Positions 1 through 9,180 of a DNA stretch of 39,965 nt are shown here, in pieces. This stretch comes from a virus (Duplodnaviria; Caudoviricetes), in IMG/VR virus record IMGVR_UViG_3300048998_000218, positions 1 to 39,965 of that record. One strand, given 5' to 3'. How positions within the stretch are numbered: the stretch's first letter is position 1; each line of letters starts with the position of its first letter. A program made the position numbers and the translations under genes. The notes below the pieces were generated by a model. It had not been told where the DNA came from, did no database searches, and saw only the letters and a list, made by a program, of their open reading frames with translations.

Positions 1-254
1 GCGCTCTCGCCACGAATGAGCCTTTCGACGCCACCCTGAAACGCGTCGATGAGCGTGTCCTGAATAGCCGGGACAACGACCTCAACCACCATGTAGTTGA
101 ACGCGGTGCGAGCATCACCGCCGATGAACGTGTCCTTGAACTGCCGACCAAGCCCCCTCTTTCGCCGAACAGCCTCGGCAGAGGTAACGCGCTCGATCTT
201 CTTCGGCTCGTTTTGCACTCGTGCCTTTTGACTGTTAGCGGGAAATGAATCCAT
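1..254 (-). CDS. Conserved phage hypothetical protein, truncated by the window edge
   Basis: Translated by hand: MDSFPANSQKARVQNEPKKIERVTSAEAVRRKRGLGRQFKDTFIGG...; AAGGA lies upstream; frame stays open to position 1. Confidence 0.75.
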   Translation of the reverse strand, partial: MDSFPANSQKARVQNEPKKIERVTSAEAVRRKRGLGRQFKDTFIGGDARTAFNYMVVEVVVPAIQDTLIDAFQGGVERLIRGES

Positions 255-279
255 GTATGTCCTTGTTGGGGTTTAGGGC

Positions 280-362
280 AAAAAGAGAAGAGCATGAACT
301 TTTTCCATGTCCATTTTAGCCGAACGGTGGCTTCTCACGAAGCCTTATTCGACACTCCTCTC
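280..362 (-). ncRNA. Candidate small structured RNA A (promoter-driven, no ORF)
   Basis: Directly follows the motif at 359-388. 5' GAGAGGAG pairs with 3' CUCUUCUC, then a U5 tract; inner GUCGAA/UUCGGC and GGCUU/AAGCC stems. Confidence 0.55.
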
Positions 363-388
363 ATTACAACCTGTGTTTTTCTCGCGAA
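359..388 (-). promoter_or_regulatory. Cassette promoter-like motif, copy 1
   Basis: TCGCG-N7-CA-N7-TAAT-GAGA on the minus strand. Confidence 0.8.
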
Positions 389-393
389 CGCGG

Positions 394-426
394 AAAAAAT
401 GAGAACCCGGGTTTCGGATTCTCATT
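394..426 (-). terminator. Intrinsic terminator (ATGAGAACC family)
   Basis: AATGAGAATCCG-AAACC-CGGGTTCTCATT hairpin plus T tract just after the stop at 435. Confidence 0.8.
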
Positions 427-434
427 CGGAGGAC

Positions 435-614
435 TTACAACTTGGCGGCCTTGACTCGGCGGTCGATCTCCTTGGCCCAGGCGTGCGAGTTCTTCGCGTT
501 CACCCGAGAGTCGTTGAGCCTGCTGATCGCGGTGATCAGTGCGGCTGCGACTCCCATGGCGAGCACGGGATTCTCTTCGGCCTGACGCTGCAGGTTTTCG
601 AGGAACCGGTTCAT
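435..614 (-). CDS. 59-aa small protein with a hydrophobic segment (not in ORF track)
   Basis: MNRFLENLQRQAEENPVLAMGVAAALITAISRLNDSRVNAKNSHAWAKEIDRRVKAAKL; AAGGAG RBS, own promoter motif and terminator. Confidence 0.85.
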   Translation of the reverse strand: MNRFLENLQRQAEENPVLAMGVAAALITAISRLNDSRVNAKNSHAWAKEIDRRVKAAKL

Positions 615-633
615 TGGGTCTCCTTAGATAGTA

Positions 634-666
634 GGGGTCTCATTAGAAGGAGTGTTTTTACCGCGA
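634..666 (-). promoter_or_regulatory. Cassette promoter-like motif, copy 2
   Basis: TCGCG-N7-CA-N7-TAAT-GAGACCCC, then AAGGAG. Confidence 0.85.
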
Positions 667-670
667 GGAG

Positions 671-700
671 AAAATGAGAACCTGGGTTTCAGATTCTCAC
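671..700 (-). terminator. Intrinsic terminator (ATGAGAACC family)
   Basis: GTGAGAATCTG-AAACC-CAGGTTCTCAT-TTT after the stop at 710. Confidence 0.8.
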
Positions 701-709
701 TTGAGTGAA

Positions 710-979
710 CTACTCGGTGGTGGCGTTCTTCTTGGCCTTTCGGGCCTCGCGCTTGGCGGCGATGAAGTCGGCGGTCTTGTCCACCATCTTGTCCGTGACG
801 GGCTTGAGCTTGTCCGAGACGTACCAACCGGCCAGGTGGCTCGAGATGTCGACGATCATGTCGTCTTCCTCGAACCTGGTGTGGTCGGTGATTGCGGTCT
901 CAGCGAGTGAAGCTGTCTCGAAGTGGATGATGGCTTTGGCGACGTACTTCGCGGCGTTGCGGAGGGTAAAAGCTTCCAT
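710..979 (-). CDS. Hypothetical cassette protein, 89 aa
   Basis: ORF with AAGGAG RBS, own promoter motif and terminator. Confidence 0.85.
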   Translation of the reverse strand: MEAFTLRNAAKYVAKAIIHFETASLAETAITDHTRFEEDDMIVDISSHLAGWYVSDKLKPVTDKMVDKTADFIAAKREARKAKKNATTE

Positions 980-1003
980 CAGAATTACTCCTTAGAGGTA
1001 GTT

Positions 1004-1037
1004 GGGGTCTCATTATAGGCGCTGATTTTTACGCGAA
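1004..1037 (-). promoter_or_regulatory. Cassette promoter-like motif, copy 3
   Basis: TTCGCG-N7-CA-N5-TATAAT-GAGACCCC. Confidence 0.85.
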
Positions 1038-1061
1038 CTGCAGGGAAAAATACAAAAGGTT

Positions 1062-1172
1062 TCCCGGTCCAGGATTCGAACCTGGCGTCTGAAGCACCAC
1101 CATCAGACGAGTGTCTAACCTAACTACCGTTTAGAACTGGTGTAGGGTTCGTAAGTAGCGACACAACCGGGC
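1062..1172 (-). ncRNA. tRNA-like RNA with non-canonical D and anticodon regions
   Basis: Perfect T arm CCAGG-TTCGAAT-CCTGG; CCCGGT/ACCGGG acceptor-like stem; CGTCTGA-N10-TCAGACG arm; GTGTC/GACAC-closed ~54-nt domain where the D arm would be. Confidence 0.7.
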
Positions 1173-1299
1173 ACGTTTAGTGAAATATAGGGCGTAGTGA
1201 GGCACAAGCTTGCCGCGGACTTCCAGGAACGCAGGCGTTGCTGTCGTTGAATATCAGCGCGTTAGCCGCTGATACCTACACTACGTGAGACCCCTCTCT

Positions 1300-1902
1300 C
1301 TAGGAGAGCTTGTAGCGTCCGGTGGCCAGTCCGGACTTCAGTTCGGCAGAATCCATCGCCGACACTTCGGCGCGGGTGAGGACTCGCGGTGTGGCATCCT
1401 GAGTGAGACCGGTCGGATCGTCGTTCTCGGCCTGAAGCTCTGCCACCGCGGCAGCCGTCTCCGGTGCTGGGGTCTTCTCGGCCTGTGCCTTGACCTCTGC
1501 GGCGATCTGCTCGAGGTTGTTGGGGATGATCCCATTGATGAACTCGGCGGAGGCGTTGGCATCTGTGCAGACCTCGAAGATGAGCTGCGAAAATGCCTCC
1601 GTGGCAGCGAACTCCTCCCAGATCTCCTTGGACTTGAGGAAGCGATCGCCGTCCTTCTTGCCGTAAGCACGACGGATGATGTCCTTGAACTCGGCCATGA
1701 TGGCCCGGCCGTCCTCGGAGTCGACGATCTGCTGAAGCTTGGCCTGCATACCCGTGAGCTGCTTGCCGTCCTTGGTGTAGGTGGCCTTGTTCTCCTCCAT
1801 CTCCATCTCGACGAGATCCGCCTTGGAGATATGGAAGTAGTGCTCCTCGGTCACTTCCTGGTTGGTGAACGGGTTGGTGTACGTGATGACCTTCTTTAGC
1901 AA
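1300..1902 (-). CDS. Conserved phage protein, function unknown
   Basis: MLKKVITYTNPF...EEHYFHISKADLVEMEM...IIRRAYGKK pattern recurs in this siphovirus group; AGGAG RBS; strong GC3 bias. Confidence 0.85.
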   Translation of the reverse strand: MLKKVITYTNPFTNQEVTEEHYFHISKADLVEMEMEENKATYTKDGKQLTGMQAKLQQIVDSEDGRAIMAEFKDIIRRAYGKKDGDRFLKSKEIWEEFAATEAFSQLIFEVCTDANASAEFINGIIPNNLEQIAAEVKAQAEKTPAPETAAAVAELQAENDDPTGLTQDATPRVLTRAEVSAMDSAELKSGLATGRYKLS

Positions 1903-2111
1903 AGTTGCTCCTGATTCGGATGTATGTACTGGATAGTTCCGATGGTCTTGCCCCGCGCATCGATGCTCAGCGTGAACTCGGCTGCTTGAATATGCAGGAC
2001 GCTACCGTCCTGAGTAATGCCCAGCGCACCACGTGTTACATCCGCGAGGTCCCCCAAGCGACGACACTGTTCGGGCAGCATCGTCACCTGAGGTCGCTCG
2101 GGAGATGTCAC
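1896..2111 (-). CDS. Hypothetical protein, 71 aa
   Basis: Overlaps both neighbours in operon fashion; GGAG RBS. Confidence 0.65.
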   Translation of the reverse strand: MTSPERPQVTMLPEQCRRLGDLADVTRGALGITQDGSVLHIQAAEFTLSIDARGKTIGTIQYIHPNQEQLC

Positions 2112-2464
2112 TACTCCGTGGTCCTGTGGTAACGGACGACGCCGCGTCGCGAATAGGCGGCGCCGAACTTGTTGATCGCGATGGCGCCCGCGTAAAGCGA
2201 CACCGACAGAGCGAAGAAGCCGATGCCCGTGTCGCTCGTGATGCGGCTGAGAACACGAGGACTGATCATGCGAGTCGTCCTCACCACGTCCTCAACCACC
2301 TCCTCAGCGGCGTCGTTCGCGGCCTCTGCCACGTCGCCCACCTTCTCGGCGGCAACCGGAGCGGCGGCCTTCGCTGCACGCCCGGTGTTCTTGACGGCCT
2401 GTCTACTCTGCCTGGCCGCTCGCGATGCGAGCTCCTGGGCCTCCTGCTTGTCTGCTTCGGACAT
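2111..2464 (-). CDS. Membrane protein with one C-terminal TM segment
   Basis: AAGGAG RBS; hydrophobic stretch GIGFFALSVSLYAGAIAI. Confidence 0.8.
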   Translation of the reverse strand: MSEADKQEAQELASRAARQSRQAVKNTGRAAKAAAPVAAEKVGDVAEAANDAAEEVVEDVVRTTRMISPRVLSRITSDTGIGFFALSVSLYAGAIAINKFGAAYSRRGVVRYHRTTE

Positions 2465-2482
2465 GTACTCTCCTTGGTTGAA

Positions 2483-2737
2483 CTACACGGACGGCTTGTC
2501 GGAAGTCTCGATCACGTCGGTGACGTCGATGGAGGGCTCAGGGTCCTCTTCGGTCTTGGTCTCTCCGGTATTCCTGAGCGCCTCGCGCAGATCCACGATG
2601 AACGCCTTGGTCTCCTCGGAGTCACGGAGATCTCGGATGAGTGCCTTGAGTTCCTCGGTGTGCTCCTGCCCCTTGAGATAGCCGTTGAGGTAACCGACGC
2701 CGTATGCGACGCCCACGACAATGAAGCCTTTGAACAT
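2483..2737 (-). CDS. Small membrane-anchored protein
   Basis: AAGGAG RBS; N-terminal hydrophobic segment, acidic tail. Confidence 0.8.
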   Translation of the reverse strand: MFKGFIVVGVAYGVGYLNGYLKGQEHTEELKALIRDLRDSEETKAFIVDLREALRNTGETKTEEDPEPSIDVTDVIETSDKPSV

Positions 2738-2893
2738 GTACTCTCCTTAGTTTGGGTTGAGGGATTTCATATATGCTAGCCGCGTGCCGGTGAGTGGCAT
2801 CAATGTCCGTATACCGCTAGCTTTCGGTAGCCACATGCCCACCCCAATAAAGGGCCTAACTTACTATGGGTCTACCGAACTTTGGTGCACTTG

Positions 2894-3679
2894 CTAGTAC
2901 CCTCGGATGTAGTCGACGTGCGGGAGATACTTGAAGTCGATGGCGATGCACGGCTTCTGGTCGTGCGAGAGCACCGTCGAGAGCTTCAGATCCACGAGGT
3001 TGTTGACGTTCCAGCCGACGTCATCTGACCACGTCGTTGGCGGTAAGCCGATCTCCTCGTAGAAGAACGAGGCGCTGGCGTAGTTGTGACGGAGGATCTC
3101 CTCGTTGGTCCGGTTGACCGCCTTGTTGATCGCGTCCATCGTGCTGCGGAAATACCGACCGGTCGGCTGATCGAAACAGAGGACCTCTCCCTCCACGATC
3201 ACGATCTGACTTCCGCCGGGCGTGTTGTTCACCCGATCCTGTGCCAGCTCGTCGTCGATCGCCTGGGCCTTCGGGCCGGTGAGCTTCTCCGTGACCTTGT
3301 CCTTGTACTCTCCGAGCTGCTTCTCGGCCAGGCCGTAGGCAGCTGCCAACGCGGCAGCCTTCTGGGCCGACATCCGGTTGGCCAGGATGATGCTGCCGAT
3401 CGTGGCCGATCCTGTGAGCACTGGCGGGATGAAGTGCACTCCCACCAGCTTGACCTTGTCGGTCTTGGACAACGGATCGATCGTGCCGCCGACGTTTGCG
3501 TTCCTGATCCGCTCCTGCTCCTCGACCATGAGAATCTCCGCGGCCTTGAACCCAGCCCTACCAGCCAACACCGCGGTGCCGATCGTTCCCACCACGCCGC
3601 CAGCCGTCAGAAGCGTCGTGGCGTTCTCCTGCAGCAACTGCTGTACGCGCTGCTTTGCATCAGCGAACATCGGATGCAT
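2894..3679 (-). CDS. Conserved phage membrane/coiled-coil protein (DUF6353-like)
   Basis: LLTAGGVVGTIGTAVLAGRA...ALAAAY...LCFDQPTGRYFRS...DDVGW pattern typical of this phage group; AAGGAG RBS. Confidence 0.8.
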   Translation of the reverse strand: MHPMFADAKQRVQQLLQENATTLLTAGGVVGTIGTAVLAGRAGFKAAEILMVEEQERIRNANVGGTIDPLSKTDKVKLVGVHFIPPVLTGSATIGSIILANRMSAQKAAALAAAYGLAEKQLGEYKDKVTEKLTGPKAQAIDDELAQDRVNNTPGGSQIVIVEGEVLCFDQPTGRYFRSTMDAINKAVNRTNEEILRHNYASASFFYEEIGLPPTTWSDDVGWNVNNLVDLKLSTVLSHDQKPCIAIDFKYLPHVDYIRGY

Positions 3680-3706
3680 TCGTGTGTACTCTCCTTTTGA
3701 AATATG

Positions 3707-3799
3707 TCAGTTCTTTGACGCTCTGGCCAACCAACGCTGAATCGCCCAGAGCATCAGGTAGCTGAGCAGCTTGGTGAAGAAGATCCGTGCGAGGATCAC
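3707..3799 (-). CDS. 30-aa hydrophobic microprotein
   Basis: MILARIFFTKLLSYLMLWAIQRWLARASKN; GTG start overlaps the upstream TAG. Confidence 0.45.
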   Translation of the reverse strand: MILARIFFTKLLSYLMLWAIQRWLARASKN

Positions 3800-3972
3800 T
3801 AGCGGCGTCTCATCTCTCGCACGAAGATCCAGACGAACCAGAGTCCGCCCGTGAGCATGACCATGAACACATCGAACAGAAAGTTCAAGCATCCGTACGG
3901 CTTGCGTGCATGACCGTCACCCACGTAGTAGGTGTGCTGGTAGTGGTGATCGTCGGTGAAGATCCTACGCAT
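3799..3972 (-). CDS. 57-aa membrane protein (not in ORF track)
   Basis: MRRIFTDDHHYQHTYYVGDGHARKPYGCLNFLFDVFMVMLTGGLWFVWIFVREMRRR; TGGLW-type TM hairpin. Confidence 0.8.
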   Translation of the reverse strand: MRRIFTDDHHYQHTYYVGDGHARKPYGCLNFLFDVFMVMLTGGLWFVWIFVREMRRR

Positions 3973-4123
3973 CGCGCCTCACCCCCGTCGCTCCGGGGTT
4001 GCGCTTGAGAGCACGCTGCTCGGCAACCTCTCTCGAGGACGCCTTGACCTTGATCGTCCGCGTTATGTTGCTCGCGTAGTACAAGGTGATGTAATACAAC
4101 TGCTTGGCCGCTCTAGCCTTCAC
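3965..4123 (-). CDS. 52-aa basic hypothetical protein
   Basis: GTG start overlapping the upstream gene end; KARAAKQLYYITLYY...VKASSREVAEQRA. Confidence 0.65.
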   Translation of the reverse strand: MKARAAKQLYYITLYYASNITRTIKVKASSREVAEQRALKRNPGATGVRRDA

Positions 4124-4292
4124 TGCAGCCGTCGCAGATCGCGTTGTGATTCCACGTCTCGCGACCACAGAGCTTGATGCATCGCACGGCGTGATCACGC
4201 GGCTGATGCTCGGGGTAGTGCTCTGGGTGATAATCAGACGAACCGTCGTAATCGACGATTGCGCCTTTGACCTCCTCGTTGGGGGTCTCCAT
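4113..4292 (-). CDS. 59-aa protein with a possible Cys4 zinc site (not in ORF track)
   Basis: METPNEEVKG...RCIKLCGRETWNHNAICDGCSEG; AGGAG RBS. Confidence 0.75.
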   Translation of the reverse strand: METPNEEVKGAIVDYDGSSDYHPEHYPEHQPRDHAVRCIKLCGRETWNHNAICDGCSEG

Positions 4293-4348
4293 ACGGTCTC
4301 CTAGTTTGGGGTCTCAAAAATATGACCCTGTGCGTTTAGCACGAGGTC

Positions 4349-4411
4349 AAAAAGAGGACCACCTGTGTAGGGTGATCACGGATCTCTTTTAGGTTAGATC
4401 CTTCCTCTCTC
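4349..4411 (-). ncRNA. Candidate small structured RNA B (three-way junction)
   Basis: 5' GAGAGAGGA pairs with 3' UCCUCUUUU; hairpins GGAUCU/AGAUCC and UCACC/GGUGG; no ORF. Confidence 0.55.
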
Positions 4412-4437
4412 ACTATAGAACGTGTTTTTTTCGCGAA
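4408..4437 (-). promoter_or_regulatory. Cassette promoter-like motif, copy 4
   Basis: TTCGCG-N7-CA-N5-TATAGT-GAGA. Confidence 0.8.
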
Positions 4438-4440
4438 CGT

Positions 4441-4734
4441 TTACGCTTCGCCGTGTTCAGCAGCCACTTCCAGCAACTTCACACGTTGGGAGAGATCGAG
4501 CACACGTCCACCACGAGTTCGCGGAACGTGATTGTTGTCAAGGACACGAGAGACTTGCTCGAGCACTTCTCTTGCGAGTTGGGGACTTCCCAGAATGTTC
4601 TTCTTCTCCTCTTCTTGACGATGTTTCCTCTCGAAATATGCGGCCCAGTAGCGCTCTTCTTCGTCTCGTTCCCTTCGTAGTGTGTCTTGTTTGTAGAGAC
4701 TCTCTGGAGTCACCGGAGGAAAATGTACCAACAT
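4441..4734 (-). CDS. Hypothetical protein, 97 aa
   Basis: Translationally coupled (TAATG) to the upstream gene; GGAG RBS. Confidence 0.75.
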   Translation of the reverse strand: MLVHFPPVTPESLYKQDTLRRERDEEERYWAAYFERKHRQEEEKKNILGSPQLAREVLEQVSRVLDNNHVPRTRGGRVLDLSQRVKLLEVAAEHGEA

Positions 4735-5054
4735 TACTTCTCCTCACTGTCCTTGTGCAACCCACAGTAGTAGCTACCGGGCTCGTTGAAGTTTGGGCAG
4801 TTCTTGCCGTTTGGGCGAATATGGGCGCACTGGAGCATACCATCCTTCATCTTCTCGCCGTACTCGTTGACCTGGTGTTGGAACTCGCGATGACGCTTGA
4901 GTGCAGCCTGCCGATATGTCTCGTTGTGATCCATGATCGTTGCGAGAACGGGCGCACTCAGCTCTAGATCCTCTGCCCCAGGAACTAGTCCAGCGTAGAG
5001 CACGAGGAAATTCGCCAGCTGTTCGTTAGTTGGCTCAGTGTACTCAGCCGCCAT
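4734..5054 (-). CDS. C-terminal CCCH-type zinc-finger protein (paralog 2)
   Basis: QCAHIRPNGKNCPNFNEPGSYYCGLH; TAATG coupling. Confidence 0.8.
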   Translation of the reverse strand: MAAEYTEPTNEQLANFLVLYAGLVPGAEDLELSAPVLATIMDHNETYRQAALKRHREFQHQVNEYGEKMKDGMLQCAHIRPNGKNCPNFNEPGSYYCGLHKDSEEK

Positions 5055-5365
5055 TACTCTCTTTCGTGTCGTTTACAGCGATAACTACCAGGTTGATTGA
5101 AACGAGTACACTGCTCGCCGGTTGGGTGAATATAGCTGCACTGAAGCTCGCCCCGCATCATCTTCTCAATCTCTTGACCCATCTCGTCGCAGAACTTACG
5201 ATGAATGCTTAGCGCGATTCCTCGAAACACAGGATCGTTTGTGATCATCCGTTCTATGAGTACAGGAGTAGTCTTGAGATGTCGAAGCTGTGGATGTTGA
5301 AGCGAGTAGATGGACAGAAAGTTAGCCAAATCCAGATTAGTTGGCGGCTTGTACTCCCAGTTCAT
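5054..5365 (-). CDS. C-terminal CCCH-type zinc-finger protein (paralog 1)
   Basis: QCSYIHPTGEQCTRFNQPGSYRCKRH; AAGGAG RBS. Confidence 0.8.
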   Translation of the reverse strand: MNWEYKPPTNLDLANFLSIYSLQHPQLRHLKTTPVLIERMITNDPVFRGIALSIHRKFCDEMGQEIEKMMRGELQCSYIHPTGEQCTRFNQPGSYRCKRHERE

Positions 5366-5385
5366 TACTCTCCTTCACTGAAGTC

Positions 5386-5535
5386 TCAGTCAAATATCGA
5401 CTTGAGGAGATGCGCGGCTGTGTACGCCACGATGATTGTGATCACAGCCTCGGTGGCCTTGTCAATCAGATCCTCAAGATCTTGGGTTGGGAGCTCGACG
5501 TTGACGTTGATATCTGCGGTGTGGTGATGTTTCAT
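5386..5535 (-). CDS. 49-aa small membrane protein (not in ORF track)
   Basis: MKHHHTADINVNVELPTQDLEDLIDKATEAVITIIVAYTAAHLLKSIFD; AGGA RBS. Confidence 0.7.
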   Translation of the reverse strand: MKHHHTADINVNVELPTQDLEDLIDKATEAVITIIVAYTAAHLLKSIFD

Positions 5536-5542
5536 GTCTTTC

Positions 5543-5740
5543 CTACTGCTGTGCCTCGAGCATGAAGACCGTTCGCTCGCCAGGCCTCGTGATCGGGGTT
5601 ACGACGTATTGATCCGGGTCGCCATCGAGAATGACCTGTGCTTGTCTTTTGGCGGACTCGCGATCGATCGCTGAGACAATTACGCCAATGCTCTCAACGA
5701 ACCTTGACTGACGCTGCACGAGAAAGACGATGTAAGACAA
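5543..5740 (-). CDS. Hypothetical protein, 65 aa
   Basis: TTG start with AAGGGA RBS; fills the gap in the operon. Confidence 0.7.
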   Translation of the reverse strand: MSYIVFLVQRQSRFVESIGVIVSAIDRESAKRQAQVILDGDPDQYVVTPITRPGERTVFMLEAQQ

Positions 5741-5764
5741 TGATCCCTTTCGGTTTGAGGTCTC

Positions 5765-5796
5765 AAAAAATGAGAACCTGTGGTTCAGATTCTCAC
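5765..5796 (-). terminator. Intrinsic terminator (ATGAGAACC family)
   Basis: GTGAGAATCTG-AACCA-CAGGTTCTCAT-TTTTT; near-identical to 671-700. Confidence 0.8.
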
Positions 5797-5804
5797 TTGA
5801 GGGA

Positions 5805-5975
5805 CTACTCGGACTTCTGGATGATGGTCGGATTCAGACTCGCGCGAAGCTTCGAGATAGCGTCAACGATCTGCATGAACTCGGGGGCGTCCGGCTGGAC
5901 ACTCTCGAGATCTTTGCAGAGGCTGTTGATGGTCTTCTCGACGGCTTGGTCAGCGGTGTCGAATGCGTGAATCAT
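5805..5975 (-). CDS. 56-aa helical cassette protein
   Basis: MIHAFDTADQAVEKTINSLCKDLE...; AAGGAG RBS downstream of the motif at 5992-6024. Confidence 0.8.
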   Translation of the reverse strand: MIHAFDTADQAVEKTINSLCKDLESVQPDAPEFMQIVDAISKLRASLNPTIIQKSE

Positions 5976-5991
5976 GTTGTGCTCCTTAGTA

Positions 5992-6024
5992 GGGGTCTCA
6001 TTATAGGCGCTGAAATTTGCGCGA
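5992..6024 (-). promoter_or_regulatory. Cassette promoter-like motif, copy 5
   Basis: TCGCG-N7-CA-N5-TATAAT-GAGACCCC. Confidence 0.85.
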
Positions 6025-6046
6025 GGACAGAAAACTACAACCCGTG

Positions 6047-6214
6047 TTAGCGGGCTGCAGTGTCGGACTTGAACTTCTTGGCGTAGTCCTTGACGACCTG
6101 ACGTGCGTCGTCCATCGTGTGCGCCGCATCCTCGTGGCGACCAAGCTTCTCCTGGATGGAAGACTTGGTATAGAGGGTGTGGAACTTGATGGATGACTTC
6201 AGTGCAGAAAGCAT
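6047..6214 (-). CDS. 55-aa cassette protein (not in ORF track)
   Basis: MLSALKSSIKFHTLYTKSSIQEKLGRHEDAAHTMDDARQVVKDYAKKFKSDTAAR; AAGGAG RBS; TAA stop lies in the terminator loop. Confidence 0.8.
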   Translation of the reverse strand: MLSALKSSIKFHTLYTKSSIQEKLGRHEDAAHTMDDARQVVKDYAKKFKSDTAAR

Positions 6215-6229
6215 GGAATCTCCTTAGTT

Positions 6230-6263
6230 GGGGTCTCACTATAGTCCATGAAACTCGCGCGAA
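6230..6263 (-). promoter_or_regulatory. Cassette promoter-like motif, copy 6
   Basis: TTCGCG-N7-CA-N5-TATAGT-GAGACCCC. Confidence 0.85.
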
Positions 6264-6294
6264 AAAAGAAAAGGACTTCCTTGTCCAGTTCTTT

Positions 6295-6357
6295 CTAGAT
6301 CAGCCAGATGATGATGTAGCCGTGGCCGAAATCCTCGATGCGAGGGTTGGGCTTCAT
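6295..6357 (-). CDS. 20-aa microprotein cassette
   Basis: MKPNPRIEDFGHGYIIIWLI; AAAGGA RBS, own promoter motif and hairpin/T tract. Confidence 0.65.
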   Translation of the reverse strand: MKPNPRIEDFGHGYIIIWLI

Positions 6358-6378
6358 GGTACTTCCTTTCATGGTTGT

Positions 6379-6410
6379 GGTCTCATTAGAGCCCATGAAA
6401 AATGCGCGAA
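6379..6410 (-). promoter_or_regulatory. Cassette promoter-like motif, copy 7
   Basis: TTCGCG-N7-CA-N7-TAAT-GAGACC. Confidence 0.85.
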
Positions 6411-6471
6411 TTGCAGGGAAAAGAAAGAACCCGTGTGGGTTCGATCTTCAGATTCCTTGTGGGAACCGTGA

Positions 6472-6633
6472 CTACTTGATCAGCTTCTTCTCCAGTTCAA
6501 CGCGCTTCTCCACGAGCTCCGTGATCTGCTTGTCGAGCTCTTCGATTTCGGTCGAGATGCTCGCGTTGTGGATCGCGGTAGCTGCGGAGAGAGCGCCGTT
6601 GCCAATGGAGGAAAGGGCGGACTTGATGGTCAT
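6472..6633 (-). CDS. 53-aa coiled-coil cassette protein
   Basis: MTIKSALSSIGNG...EIEELDKQITELVEKRVELEKKLIK; AAAGGA RBS. Confidence 0.8.
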   Translation of the reverse strand: MTIKSALSSIGNGALSAATAIHNASISTEIEELDKQITELVEKRVELEKKLIK

Positions 6634-6649
6634 GGTGTTTCCTTTGATA

Positions 6650-6683
6650 GGGGTCTCATTATAGCCCATGAAATATACGCGAA
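6650..6683 (-). promoter_or_regulatory. Cassette promoter-like motif, copy 8
   Basis: TTCGCG-N7-CA-N5-TATAAT-GAGACCCC. Confidence 0.85.
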
Positions 6684-6725
6684 AAGGAAGAGAAAAACTA
6701 AAGCCCGTGTTTGCGGGCCTCAGCT

Positions 6726-7019
6726 TTATGAGATCTCGGGCGTGCTTTCGAGCAGTTCCAGAAATCCCTCAGTGGTCATCAGAGGAACGTTAGATGCTGG
6801 ATGGCATGACGGATCGAATGGCACATCGTTGAAGTTGCTGATGGCGGGGATCCACGGATAGACCGACGTGAACAGAATCGTCTCACAGCCGTCTTCGGCG
6901 TGATAATCGATGCTGTCACGAAGGTGTTCGATCGTGAAACCGCGCTTGGCGGCAACCTCGATGATGCGCTCGACGTTGTCGTGCGTAAGCATAACGCTCC
7001 CAGGAATGGGCTGGGGCAT
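6726..7019 (-). CDS. Acidic hypothetical cassette protein, 97 aa
   Basis: AAGGAG RBS; terminator GCCCG-CAAACA-CGGGC-TTT at about 6693-6718. Confidence 0.8.
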   Translation of the reverse strand: MPQPIPGSVMLTHDNVERIIEVAAKRGFTIEHLRDSIDYHAEDGCETILFTSVYPWIPAISNFNDVPFDPSCHPASNVPLMTTEGFLELLESTPEIS

Positions 7020-7042
7020 AATGGGTCTCCTTTAGTTTGATA

Positions 7043-7076
7043 GGGGTCTCATTACAAGCGTTGAAATATGCGCGAA
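7043..7076 (-). promoter_or_regulatory. Cassette promoter-like motif, copy 9
   Basis: TTCGCG-N7-CA-N7-TAAT-GAGACCCC. Confidence 0.85.
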
Positions 7077-7119
7077 GAAAAACTGAGAACCCTTGTTACA
7101 GGGCTCTGCAGTCTTGGCT

Positions 7120-7323
7120 CTACTCCGCCAGGGTGGTGGCGGCTGCCTTGAGCGTCTCGAGCTCGACGGACAGCTTGACGGTCCGGTAGTTGAAGATGGC
7201 GGCGGTCATGTTCATGGCGGGCAATGCGATCATTGTCCCCCAGAACAGGGCGGGGCCGTACTTCCTCAACTTGGACTTCTTGGGCTGCTCGTCGGCAGGT
7301 TCGAGAATCTCGTTTTGCAGCAT
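7120..7323 (-). CDS. 67-aa membrane cassette protein
   Basis: AAGGAG RBS; central hydrophobic segment; terminator at about 7078-7112. Confidence 0.8.
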
Positions 7324-7342
7324 AACTGCTCCTTTGGTAGTA

Positions 7343-7375
7343 GGGTCTCATTATAGGCGCTGAAATATGCGCGAA
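7343..7375 (-). promoter_or_regulatory. Cassette promoter-like motif, copy 10
   Basis: TTCGCG-N7-CA-N5-TATAAT-GAGACCC. Confidence 0.85.
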
Positions 7376-7378
7376 GGC

Positions 7379-7506
7379 AAAAAAAAAGAAGGCGACAGTC
7401 CAACGAAAACTGTCTTTAGCAACCTGTCTTATGGTTGCACTCCGGGTGGGGGTTTCTCCCACGCATTCGTGTCTCGGAATAGGGGTTTAGGGCCTATCTT
7501 CTCTCT
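7379..7506 (-). ncRNA. Candidate structured RNA C (four hairpins in a closed junction)
   Basis: 5' AGAGAGAAG pairs with 3' CUUCUUUUU; hairpins AUAGG/CCUAU, UCCG..CGGA with inner GUGGG/CCCAC, GCAACC/GGUUGC, GACAGU/ACUGUC; no RBS-ORF. Confidence 0.65.
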
Positions 7507-7532
7507 ACTATACACTACGAAATACACGCGAA
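7503..7532 (-). promoter_or_regulatory. Cassette promoter-like motif, copy 11 (variant)
   Basis: TTCGCG-N7-CG-N5-TATAGT-AGAG; same spacing as the others. Confidence 0.75.
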
Positions 7533-7567
7533 GACAAAAAGGAAAGCCCGCGTTTGCGGGCCTATCC

Positions 7568-7720
7568 TTAGGCGTAGATCTTGGTGTAACCGGGGACGTG
7601 CTTGGTCTCAGCCAGCTTGGCCTGCGAAGCAGCGATCATCTTGTTGTAGCGGTTGCGCTTGCGGCGCTCCGTACGAATCTCGATGTGCTCCTTGGCGGCG
7701 AGCTTGAGTGAGTAGAACAT
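7568..7720 (-). CDS. 50-aa basic cassette protein (not in ORF track)
   Basis: MFYSLKLAAKEHIEIRTERRKRNRYNKMIAASQAKLAETKHVPGYTKIYA; AAGGAG RBS; terminator at about 7536-7570. Confidence 0.8.
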   Translation of the reverse strand: MFYSLKLAAKEHIEIRTERRKRNRYNKMIAASQAKLAETKHVPGYTKIYA

Positions 7721-7741
7721 TTAGGTCTCCTTGGTTTCAGT

Positions 7742-7774
7742 GGGGTCTCATTATAGGCGTTGAAATATACGCGA
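7742..7774 (-). promoter_or_regulatory. Cassette promoter-like motif, copy 12
   Basis: TCGCG-N7-CA-N5-TATAAT-GAGACCCC. Confidence 0.85.
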
Positions 7775-7776
7775 GG

Positions 7777-7816
7777 GCGACTCAGTATTTGCTTATTATG
7801 CGAGTCAGTATCTGCT
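7777..7816. repeat. 17-bp imperfect direct repeat, 23-bp period
   Basis: gcgactcagtatttgct (7777-7793) and gcgagtcagtatctgct (7800-7816), 15/17 identical. Confidence 0.7.
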
Positions 7817-7856
7817 CTTTTCACCAAAATTCTCCCCCGGGGTTTTTTGGAAAGTG

Positions 7857-7989
7857 AAAAATGAGAACCAATGTCTGCATGGCCTTCTACATCCCTGGGG
7901 ATTTGGGTATTACACCACAGGGTAGCTTGGGTGGAGATGCAGAGGGTTCGTCCGGATTGGTTATGTGGGGACGACTCGCATTGGATCTC
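7857..7989 (-). ncRNA. Candidate structured RNA D
   Basis: 5' GAGAUCCAAUG pairs with 3' CAUUGGUUCUC (one mismatch), then a U tract; inner UCGUCC/GGACGA, UCUGCAU/AUGCAGA and CCCUG/CAGGG stems; no RBS. Confidence 0.65.
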
Positions 7990-8015
7990 ATTAGAGGGGT
8001 TGAAATCTACGCGAA
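7986..8015 (-). promoter_or_regulatory. Cassette promoter-like motif, copy 13
   Basis: TTCGCG-N7-CA-N7-TAAT-GAGA. Confidence 0.8.
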
Positions 8016-8078
8016 GGCAAAAAAAGAGAAACCGTGTTTTCAGCACGATCTCTCTTTCGTCCCTCTTAGGGCGGGTTG

Positions 8079-8360
8079 CTACCGGGGCTTCATGACGAAC
8101 CCAAGCGCTTTCGAGGTGATCACGTTCTCACGCTCGTAGCGGGTCAGCCAGAGGATCCCGAAGATGTTGGCGCCGACGATGAGCACAGTGTCCAGGCTCG
8201 GCAGCTTCAGACGCTCTTCGGTCTTCAGCTTGTGCAGCTTGGTGATGCGCTCAACGACGGCGCCGTACTCTTCGGAGTCGGCTTCTAGCCGATCCAGCCT
8301 TTCGAGTGCGGAAATGATCTCCTCGTCCAGCTTGGATTCGATGTTGCTCTTGATAAGCAT
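8079..8360 (-). CDS. Membrane protein (helical N-domain plus TM segment)
   Basis: AAGGAG RBS; DTVLIVGANIFGILWL...VITSKALGFV; terminator at about 8019-8058. Confidence 0.85.
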   Translation of the reverse strand: MLIKSNIESKLDEEIISALERLDRLEADSEEYGAVVERITKLHKLKTEERLKLPSLDTVLIVGANIFGILWLTRYERENVITSKALGFVMKPR

Positions 8361-8375
8361 ATCTCTCCTTAGGTA

Positions 8376-8409
8376 GGGGTCTCACTATAGGCGATGTTTC
8401 GCCCGCGAA
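8376..8409 (-). promoter_or_regulatory. Cassette promoter-like motif, copy 14
   Basis: TTCGCG-N7-CA-N5-TATAGT-GAGACCCC. Confidence 0.85.
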
Positions 8410-8419
8410 CTCCTACCTA

Positions 8420-8800
8420 CTACGGTTGACGACGTTTGCCCGTACGGTGTCGTGAAGGTAGAGGCTTCTTCTTTTCCTTCTTCACCACCTTGAAACGAGC
8501 TTCGTCCACCTTCTCGATTTCCTCCGGCTGTCCCTCCAGATTGAGGGAATATGTCTTGCTACCGGATTCGAGTTCTTGCACCTCGATGTCGCCGACTCGC
8601 TTGGAGTCGTATTTGGCGGTCGAGATTTGCAACACCACGCCTAGAAACGTGTCCACAGCGATGATCGTGTTGACGACTTCCTGTGCCTTGGGTAGATCCC
8701 AGATCCCCGCCAGGGTGAAGTACAGCGTGGCGAAGGCTGGAAGCACGATCATCGCTAGGAACTTGAGGAAATCGTATAGCCTCGGGCTGCTGATTTTCAT
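8420..8800 (-). CDS. Holin (Dp-1-type)
   Basis: YDFLKFLAMIVLPAFATLYFTLAGIW...VVNTIIAVDTFLGVVLQIST; two TM segments and a basic tail. Confidence 0.85.
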   Translation of the reverse strand: MKISSPRLYDFLKFLAMIVLPAFATLYFTLAGIWDLPKAQEVVNTIIAVDTFLGVVLQISTAKYDSKRVGDIEVQELESGSKTYSLNLEGQPEEIEKVDEARFKVVKKEKKKPLPSRHRTGKRRQP

Positions 8801-8835
8801 CGAATAAGACTCACTTTCGGTCTTGATAGTTGATC

Positions 8836-9180
8836 TCAGATGTTTGGCGGTGGACAGCGAATATTTCTCAGCGCATCCACTGTTCTCTGAGAGTTGGCGA
8901 TCGACAGCTTGATCACGCCAAGCGGAATTTCCTTGGATCCGTTTGGATGATCGATCAAGTATTCTTGGCTGGTTTGGACTCTTGTTGCCGCTTCATTGCG
9001 AAGCGTGCAGAGTCCGTCAGTGTTGTTTCGGGATACGGTGTAGATGTAATAACCAAGGCTAAACAAGCCGAGGTACAACACTACCGTCGCTGTGACGAGG
9101 CGTCGAAGCGACCGTCGAAGTGTCTCCGGCGTCGGCACCTCCTCAGATCCGTTCATTTCGAGCCTCCTAATCAGTAACAT
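8836..9180 (-). CDS. Membrane protein next to the holin (start uncertain)
   Basis: One TM segment; two Cys in the C-terminal part. Confidence 0.7.
   Translation of the reverse strand: MLLIRRLEMNGSEEVPTPETLRRSLRRLVTATVVLYLGLFSLGYYIYTVSRNNTDGLCTLRNEAATRVQTSQEYLIDHPNGSKEIPLGVIKLSIANSQRTVDALRNIRCPPPNI

Follow-up and report, generated by a model that had tools for sequence, protein, structure and literature searches.

The promoter array and its four ORF-less units

The DNA considered here is a record of a tailed phage (Duplodnaviria; Caudoviricetes; IMG/VR virus record IMGVR_UViG_3300048998_000218) analysed over its whole length of 39,965 nucleotides (nt), termed the window, which represents a virus record 68% complete and has at its left 9 kb of small genes flanked by tail genes and a DUF6353 gene. 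Exactly 14 copies of a promoter motif, TCGC-N15-TATAAT-GA, were identified in the window by a position-weight scan, every one of them on the minus strand and within 359-8408, with an exact-pattern search recovering 13 of the 14 and a reversed control none. Ten copies, spread over 638..8408 (CGCG at 665, 1035, 6023, 6261, 6408, 6681, 7074, 7373, 7773 and 8407), continue with GAGACC and then have a ribosome-binding site and a start codon, that at 6408 leading to merely a 20-codon open reading frame (ORF) that falls below the 25-codon filter. The remaining four, with TCGC at 387, 4436, 7531 and 8014, lead to ORF-less folds with paired ends and a U tract, as the original prediction had claimed and the analysis confirmed. 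It is these four units, A to D, very probably transcribed as discrete small RNAs, that are described here.

On the minus strand the motif scan placed the promoters of the four cassettes at 363..387 (A, TCGC ... TGTAAT), 4412..4436 (B), 7507..7531 (C) and 7990..8014 (D), followed by 83-85, 63-65, 128-130 and 133-135 nt, respectively. In each RNA the first bases pair with the bases preceding the U tract; the leaders in mRNA slots begin GAGACC, while the RNA slots begin purine-rich, matching their own 3′ ends. RNA A (280..362, minus strand) has, inside the helix that closes it, a stem in which a GNRA hairpin is nested and a second hairpin, RNA B (4349..4411, minus strand) two hairpins with an ACCUA-like word in both loops and RNA D (7857..7989, minus strand) two stems with C/A-rich loops, each ending in a U tract; RNA C is described below. 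Compared with 200 dinucleotide shuffles of each unit, folding was more stable for A (z -4.22, 0/200 shuffles), C (z -4.03, 0/200) and D (z -3.04, 1/200), with B being the weakest (z -1.97, 8/200).

Relatives of the DUF6353 gene were found in 237 records, comprising Arthrobacter, Gordonia, Streptomyces, Rhodococcus and Microbacterium phages together with gut phages. Clusters EL, BI, AM, AU, CC and DJ have been grouped together for such phages in the accessible part of one report (PMC7302621), and their small-gene arrays have been remarked on in another, the accessible text of which does not use the word promoter (PMC5513430). Locus searches based on a single protein yielded one locus and three loci. 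The motif was present in 24 of 25 related records (reversed control 0). Across the window and 20 relative stretches, 161 motif copies comprised 116 with an ORF, 40 end-paired without an ORF and five that were neither, the rate of 40/161 being biased by the choice of those 20 stretches via RNA-type starts. Over all loci collected, 114 of 403 distinct motif copies were ORF-less and end-paired (59 of family C, seven T-arm and 48 others), as were 46 of the 88 distinct units beginning GAGAGGA. The 50-bp TATAAT-bearing repeat of the Gordonia cluster DJ phage Vardy is the same promoter motif, read in that study as a sigma-70 promoter before genes with no RNA reported (PMC9671010). Gut phages (L001, L026, L038 and others) carry 88-nt tandem repeats that each consist of the promoter and a single hairpin.

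RNA C defines a family of structured RNAs

RNA C (7379..7506, minus strand; 104.5 bits with model R1) consists of a closing helix P1, an optional hairpin P2, helices P3, P4, P5 and P6 and a U tract, with the next promoter directly 3′. Its core (7440..7479, minus strand) is made up of a 5-bp P3 (7479-7475 with 7444-7440), a 12-nt linker (7474-7463) and a 5-bp hairpin, P4, with a 7-nt T-loop-like loop (7462-7446), while the loop of P6 (7394..7414, minus strand; loop 7407-7403) pairs with linker positions 7470-7466 in a predicted pseudoknot. From the alignment, P3, linker, P4 and P3′ are arranged as the acceptor stem and T arm are in tRNA, the 12-nt linker standing in for the D and anticodon arms.

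Homologues of C were collected by promoter-only scans and then by a core pattern, giving 109 metagenome loci; a first version of the pattern, which was rejected, returned mostly true tRNAs and coding DNA, with family C at 6 of 57 loci. In all 115 matches were examined, yielding 79 distinct complete units after discarding 13 matches with no promoter in view (three of them chance), five with no P6 match, two with no U tract and 16 duplicates; L111, a diverged C by eye, was dropped at E 0.81. Dereplication left 65 units, of which 52 make up alignment A1 and 13 close ones were left out.

In A1, 96.0% of the cells of 24 named pairs can pair and 16 of the 24 pairs show two-sided changes; the covariation score is reached by 0/500 shuffles (kinship ignored), and slid partners pair at 31-44%. 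Two-sided changes affect every pair of the helices that the search pattern left free (P3 5/5, P5 4/4, P6 5/5). In all, four helices and the pseudoknot show compensatory changes. At the pseudoknot pair between linker and P6 loop the 52 rows have G-C in 37, U-A in 10 and other combinations in five; U-A rows occur in both subtypes, with about 10 changes on the tree and none opposite, and at a second pseudoknot pair A-U is replaced by C-G in L365, which was recovered without using the linker. The P4 loop was likewise free in the search pattern and has a purine at position 4 in 79/79 units, A at 5 in 77/79 and U at 1 in 62/79, with canonical TTCRA in 8/79. As a sequence pattern only, it agrees with the T-loop (U1, purine 4, A5 and a 5-bp stem) as described in the accessible part of PMC4810234. 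Outside the search pattern the unpaired bases T99, T100, G106 and G107 are invariant and A90 and A91 nearly so, and variants without P2 or P5 keep the core. On this comparative evidence family C is a new, well-supported RNA family with no match in Rfam. The original view that the four RNAs differ and share an architecture rather than a repeat stands within the window, while C belongs to a large family elsewhere. That view had overlooked the T-arm-like hairpin and the pseudoknot of C, as well as the tRNA mimics among the sister cassettes.

Model R1 matches Rhodococcus phage ReqiPepy6 (E 7.7e-16) and, as a short form, Arthrobacter phage Gordon (E 0.014). Matches to the Pepy6 copy occur in 10 records (Pepy6, Poco6 and the Gordonia phages Fazel, Hydrus, Zeph, Secretariat and Schwartz33), always without annotation, and the short form of Gordon occurs in 40 Arthrobacter records. 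A blastn search with the C of the window found no match among cultured phages, the link having come via the Pepy6 copy and model R1. In a scan of 185,579 species, each represented by a single genome, four contigs of metagenome-assembled genomes matched, three of them phage-like cassette arrays by their ORFs and one a chance match, and there is therefore no cellular copy at the exact C pattern. No paper describing these RNAs was found in literature searches that covered large supplements in part, and an earlier computational listing is possible; four core words of C were absent from six supplement files of PMC10690425, with three further files outside the search and the supplement of PMC5737381 unreadable.

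Start site and polymerase

At sigma-70 promoters of the host, transcription begins about 7 nt past the -10 box. A sigma-70 scan called none of the 14 motifs in the window. End pairing played no part in the selection of the C units; in these, the six bases that follow TATAAT (+1 to +6) are paired in 54-68 of 72 cases as against 16-28 of 113 leaders of mRNAs, and A-U and G-C replace one another at +3, +5 and +6. Since these positions pair in C units with such swaps, the base directly following TATAAT is likely part of the transcript, and transcription would begin at or next to it.

A polymerase motif of the DFDGD type was detected in 12 of 17 related records within an 885-aa protein, phrog_4291, which has a C-terminal helix-turn-helix and is carried by 250 phage records. 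The phrog_4291 protein may be YonO-like, with which a shared weak RdRP-type motif agrees. The polymerase gene is absent from the window, a 68% fragment, and the exact motif pattern is absent from the 100% complete records G001, G016 and G026. It is likely that a single-chain two-barrel RNA polymerase of the phage group reads this promoter. YonO of SPbeta is a single-chain two-barrel polymerase like that encoded by the relatives, its promoter being left undetermined in the part of that report accessible here (PMC5467207).

Turnover of the RNA cassettes

While covariation in homologues was found for C as anticipated, RNAs A, B and D have no homologues in the fetched loci or scans. A pattern specific for RNA A gave 21 loci that were all chance matches, RNA D matched cultured phages by its promoter alone, and scanning from the promoter for starts of the A type (93 loci) and the D type (27 loci) brought in many RNAs and no nhmmer homologues. 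The D site is empty in the relative G004, where the gene upstream, the terminator and the element downstream are the same but adjoin directly, with no promoter-RNA unit between them. In L129 and L292 slots A and B are occupied by unrelated end-paired RNAs, and slot A in L290 holds a promoter-led unit not called end-paired by the filter. The proposal that small structured RNAs are handled as exchangeable cassettes is borne out by the covariation of C, the empty D site and the differing RNAs in syntenic slots. In this view A, B and D would be cargos particular to their lineage, directed at other targets than C.

Other cargos occur in the same frame. Cassettes of tRNA shape (L141, L142, L143, Vardy, Pepy6 and Poco6) have D and T arms, a short-looped hairpin replacing the anticodon arm, sealed ends and no CCA, with sister cassettes in Pepy6 and Poco6 carrying the annotation tRNA-OTHER; the best RF00005 score was 21.6 bits, in L168 (cut-off 29). 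Anticodon-less RNAs of this kind were seen at L283:5549, L284:11199, L288:4694, L141, L142, L143, L348 and L384, a set that includes the three cultured phages. A sister cassette in L123 has a T arm and then a D arm, as in YrlA, and scores 30 bits with RF02553 against a cut-off of 69. Elsewhere a hairpin is repeated two or three times (L131, L132, L138, L319, L322, L386 and L292:2412), the loop word differing for each cassette; CsrB and other RNAs that titrate proteins are laid out in this way. A second recurring cargo family has three members (L017:426, L134 and L146:153) with two-sided changes at 9 of 21 predicted pairs, and further cargo units also recur across several phages. RNA cassettes may stand in tandem, three in Gordon and two in Pepy6, the ORF-less promoter units of Gordon (L285:7529-7870) comprising one with a T arm, the short version of C and one further RNA.

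Other features of the window

The stretch was found in one sequencing run only (X1, soil DNA, which may be the sample of origin; no RNA run), with no differing letters. Two adjoining ORFs of about 105 aa (4734-5054 and 5054-5365, minus strand) resemble paralogues with Cys/His-rich ends and have no Pfam or PHROG match. An intergenic segment 3′ of the DUF6353 gene (2745-2890, minus strand), with similarity in G004 (nhmmer E 1.4e-5), is a possible further RNA with a folding z of -0.70. The element at 7775-7860 (minus strand), an A-run, C/G core and T-run, is 87% identical over 63 nt in G004 and weakly present in five more relatives, and is a candidate origin or protein-binding site. After the tail-chaperone gene, 250 nt without an ORF (1050-1295, minus strand) include a canonical T-arm hairpin (1067-1083) and a terminator with no promoter copy; the first 60 nt are common to L129 and L292, and 1056-1140 folds like shuffles (z -0.34).

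Comparison with known systems

The cassettes resemble the PeSL units of T4-type phages, as described in the accessible part of PMC2839356, in being repeated promoter/terminator units among small non-essential genes that are gained and lost at repeats, as with the empty D site of G004 and the different RNAs that L129 and L292 have in slots A and B. They differ in that PeSLs have sigma-70-like promoters and flank protein genes (PMC2839356), whereas the promoter here has another geometry, with TCGC 15 nt before TATAAT, no sigma-70 call and pairing from +1, and the cargo is structured RNA.

The Y RNA YrlA (RF02553), from the accessible part of PMC4201824, shares with C paired ends and a T-arm-like hairpin, and the CGAAUG of the C linker occurs in its 5′ region. 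Unlike YrlA, C has a pseudoknot and lacks the GNCGAAN0-1G motif, a D arm and an adjacent Ro60 gene (PMC4201824). This Ro60-binding motif of the YrlA 5′ region was found anywhere in only 1/79 C units, with just CGAATG in 66/79, and no D arm is present in alignment A1 although the T-arm-like hairpin is. A Ro60 domain (PF05731) was detected in 1 of 19 records (G001, the fetched stretches of which have no C match) and not in the window, a 68% fragment, and neither A-D nor the C homologues matched RF02553 at 69 bits or above. The Ro60 (TROVE) protein gene, at G001:C1:54857-55867, lies near RNA cassettes of that relative.

Compared with tRNA (RF00005), C has P3 and P4 arranged like an acceptor stem and T arm, but it has no anticodon arm, D arm or CCA; ARAGORN called 0 genes in the window and CCA follows P3 in 0/79 units. 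More widely, no Rfam riboswitch or ribozyme matched A-D or the C homologues at gathering score, Rfam searches of window positions 1-9000 gave three sub-threshold hits with none on A-D, and those of 20 related loci gave one chance hit, in agreement with the earlier statement that no known family fits.

Racr (PMC10651486) and the pseudo-ToxI of phage TE (PMC3475682) are, in the accessible parts of these reports, non-coding RNAs of phage origin that imitate an RNA of the host and sequester a defence protein, which is also the mode of action proposed here. Those RNAs copy CRISPR repeats or ToxI (PMC10651486, PMC3475682), whereas the present RNAs have in common a promoter and closing-helix frame with many cargos, and Rfam families of CRISPR repeats and type III antitoxins gave no hit at E up to 5 in window positions 1-9000. 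The RNAs are judged real and would be a variant of phage decoy-type small RNAs, with C falling outside YrlA, tRNA and every Rfam family tested.

Proposed function of the RNAs and alternative explanations

In the proposed mechanism the phage-encoded RNA polymerase would transcribe each ORF-less unit into a stand-alone small RNA, the purine-rich 5′ end of which would pair with the pyrimidine run preceding the U tract. This single closing helix would both end transcription and shield the two ends, providing a reusable frame for any RNA cargo, with the cargos mimicking host RNA surfaces. The tRNA-shaped and repeated-hairpin sister cargos, with the precedent of Racr and pseudo-ToxI, point to decoys, and by this analogy there is about an even chance that the RNAs act in trans on host RNA-binding or RNA-cutting/defence proteins. 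RNA C would present a pseudoknot-braced, tRNA-like acceptor/T-arm stack and compete for proteins recognising the T arm or elbow of tRNA, for example tRNA-cutting defence nucleases; such a tRNA-type target, again argued by analogy, is possible but somewhat doubtful. A still more tentative extension would be a general RNA-display system in which the phages' own polymerase and a self-sealing end helix serve a swappable library of counter-defence RNA mimics (tRNA shapes, hairpin sponges and C), with C blocking tRNA-targeting defence or trapping an immune signal.

Several observations weigh against parts of this account. The likeness of C to tRNA is partial, since 71/79 units lack canonical TTCRA, none has a D arm and none has CCA after P3. 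A strict tree test of the pseudoknot pair was underpowered, with five independent pairs, 4.3 of them changing the same way and none opposite (median p 0.125), and five of the 52 rows have neither G-C nor U-A; the invariance of linker and P4 in A1 is built in, because the search pattern fixed most of both. With the Pfam RdRP model the polymerase scores below cut-off (E 0.0012). Evidence of conservation is limited to C, with A, B and D lacking homologues, and B, the weakest of the four, folds just marginally better than shuffles. A multi-stem RNA cassette is absent from the stretches examined of two cultured relatives, Scarif and Rima, such that the RNAs are accessory. Finally, a gene without its own promoter follows 49 of the 79 C units, and likewise A and B here, which fits a leader role.

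This last arrangement would be expected of cis-acting leaders or attenuators in which the fold sets read-through of the U tract into the next genes, the more so as one cluster accounts for 17 of the 49 genes. The 49 genes fall into 18 clusters in all, though, while a new promoter comes after C and D here and after 19/79 C units, and RNA cassettes occur in tandem in Gordon and Pepy6, making leaders an unlikely explanation. The failure to find homologues of A, B and D, the turnover of slots among relatives and the poor fold of B could also mean that these three are near-neutral fillers, promoter-terminator slots that have lost their gene and whose end fold is kept only for termination, with C alone under selection. 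Against this, A and D have internal stems besides the closing helix, with the z-scores given above, other cargos such as the three-member family recur in several phages with compensatory changes, and RNA slots differ from the GAGACC of mRNA leaders in being purine-rich and matched to their own 3′ ends; we regard fillers as improbable.

For RNA C itself, the compact multi-helix junction with its pseudoknot, T-loop and invariant unpaired bases, and the retention of the core in variants that lose P2 or P5, would suit a ribozyme, or an aptamer that soaks up a small signalling molecule as its ligand, rather than a protein decoy; this is distinctly improbable given the lack of an Rfam riboswitch or ribozyme match, the canonical tRNA T-loop of some members and the tRNA-mimic neighbours. 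As tentative leads, C may resemble T-box stem I, RNase P, a cobalamin riboswitch or the L11 site of rRNA, and the second loop of A may resemble a CsrA site. Antisense regulation of phage or host mRNAs is suggested by RNA D, which matches ORF 2111-2464 in antisense at 16/17 bases at position 2268, a match reached by 3/100 resampled sequences. With four RNAs tested this amounts to about 0.1 overall, A, B and C are at chance (15, 74 and 98 of 100) and the matching bases of D sit in stems, such that an antisense role is very unlikely. Translation of micro-ORFs, perhaps leaderless, could start from an ATG within TAATGAGA, from which D has 34 codons. It is extremely unlikely, as C in the window has no ATG at that place, the frame from the conserved linker ATG runs from 3 to more than 50 codons with a stop after three in 38/79 units, and the changes preserve pairs rather than codons.

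Significance

To our knowledge, few cases of RNA-based counter-defence by phages are known. The present findings place unannotated RNA genes in accessory-protein slots across a large group of phages, many of which have been cultured on harmless hosts. Family C represents a new fold to solve, and each cargo may serve as bait for its host target protein. Together, the promoter and the closing helix may offer a compact means of producing stable small RNAs, and the promoter of a little-studied type of single-chain RNA polymerase becomes directly testable.

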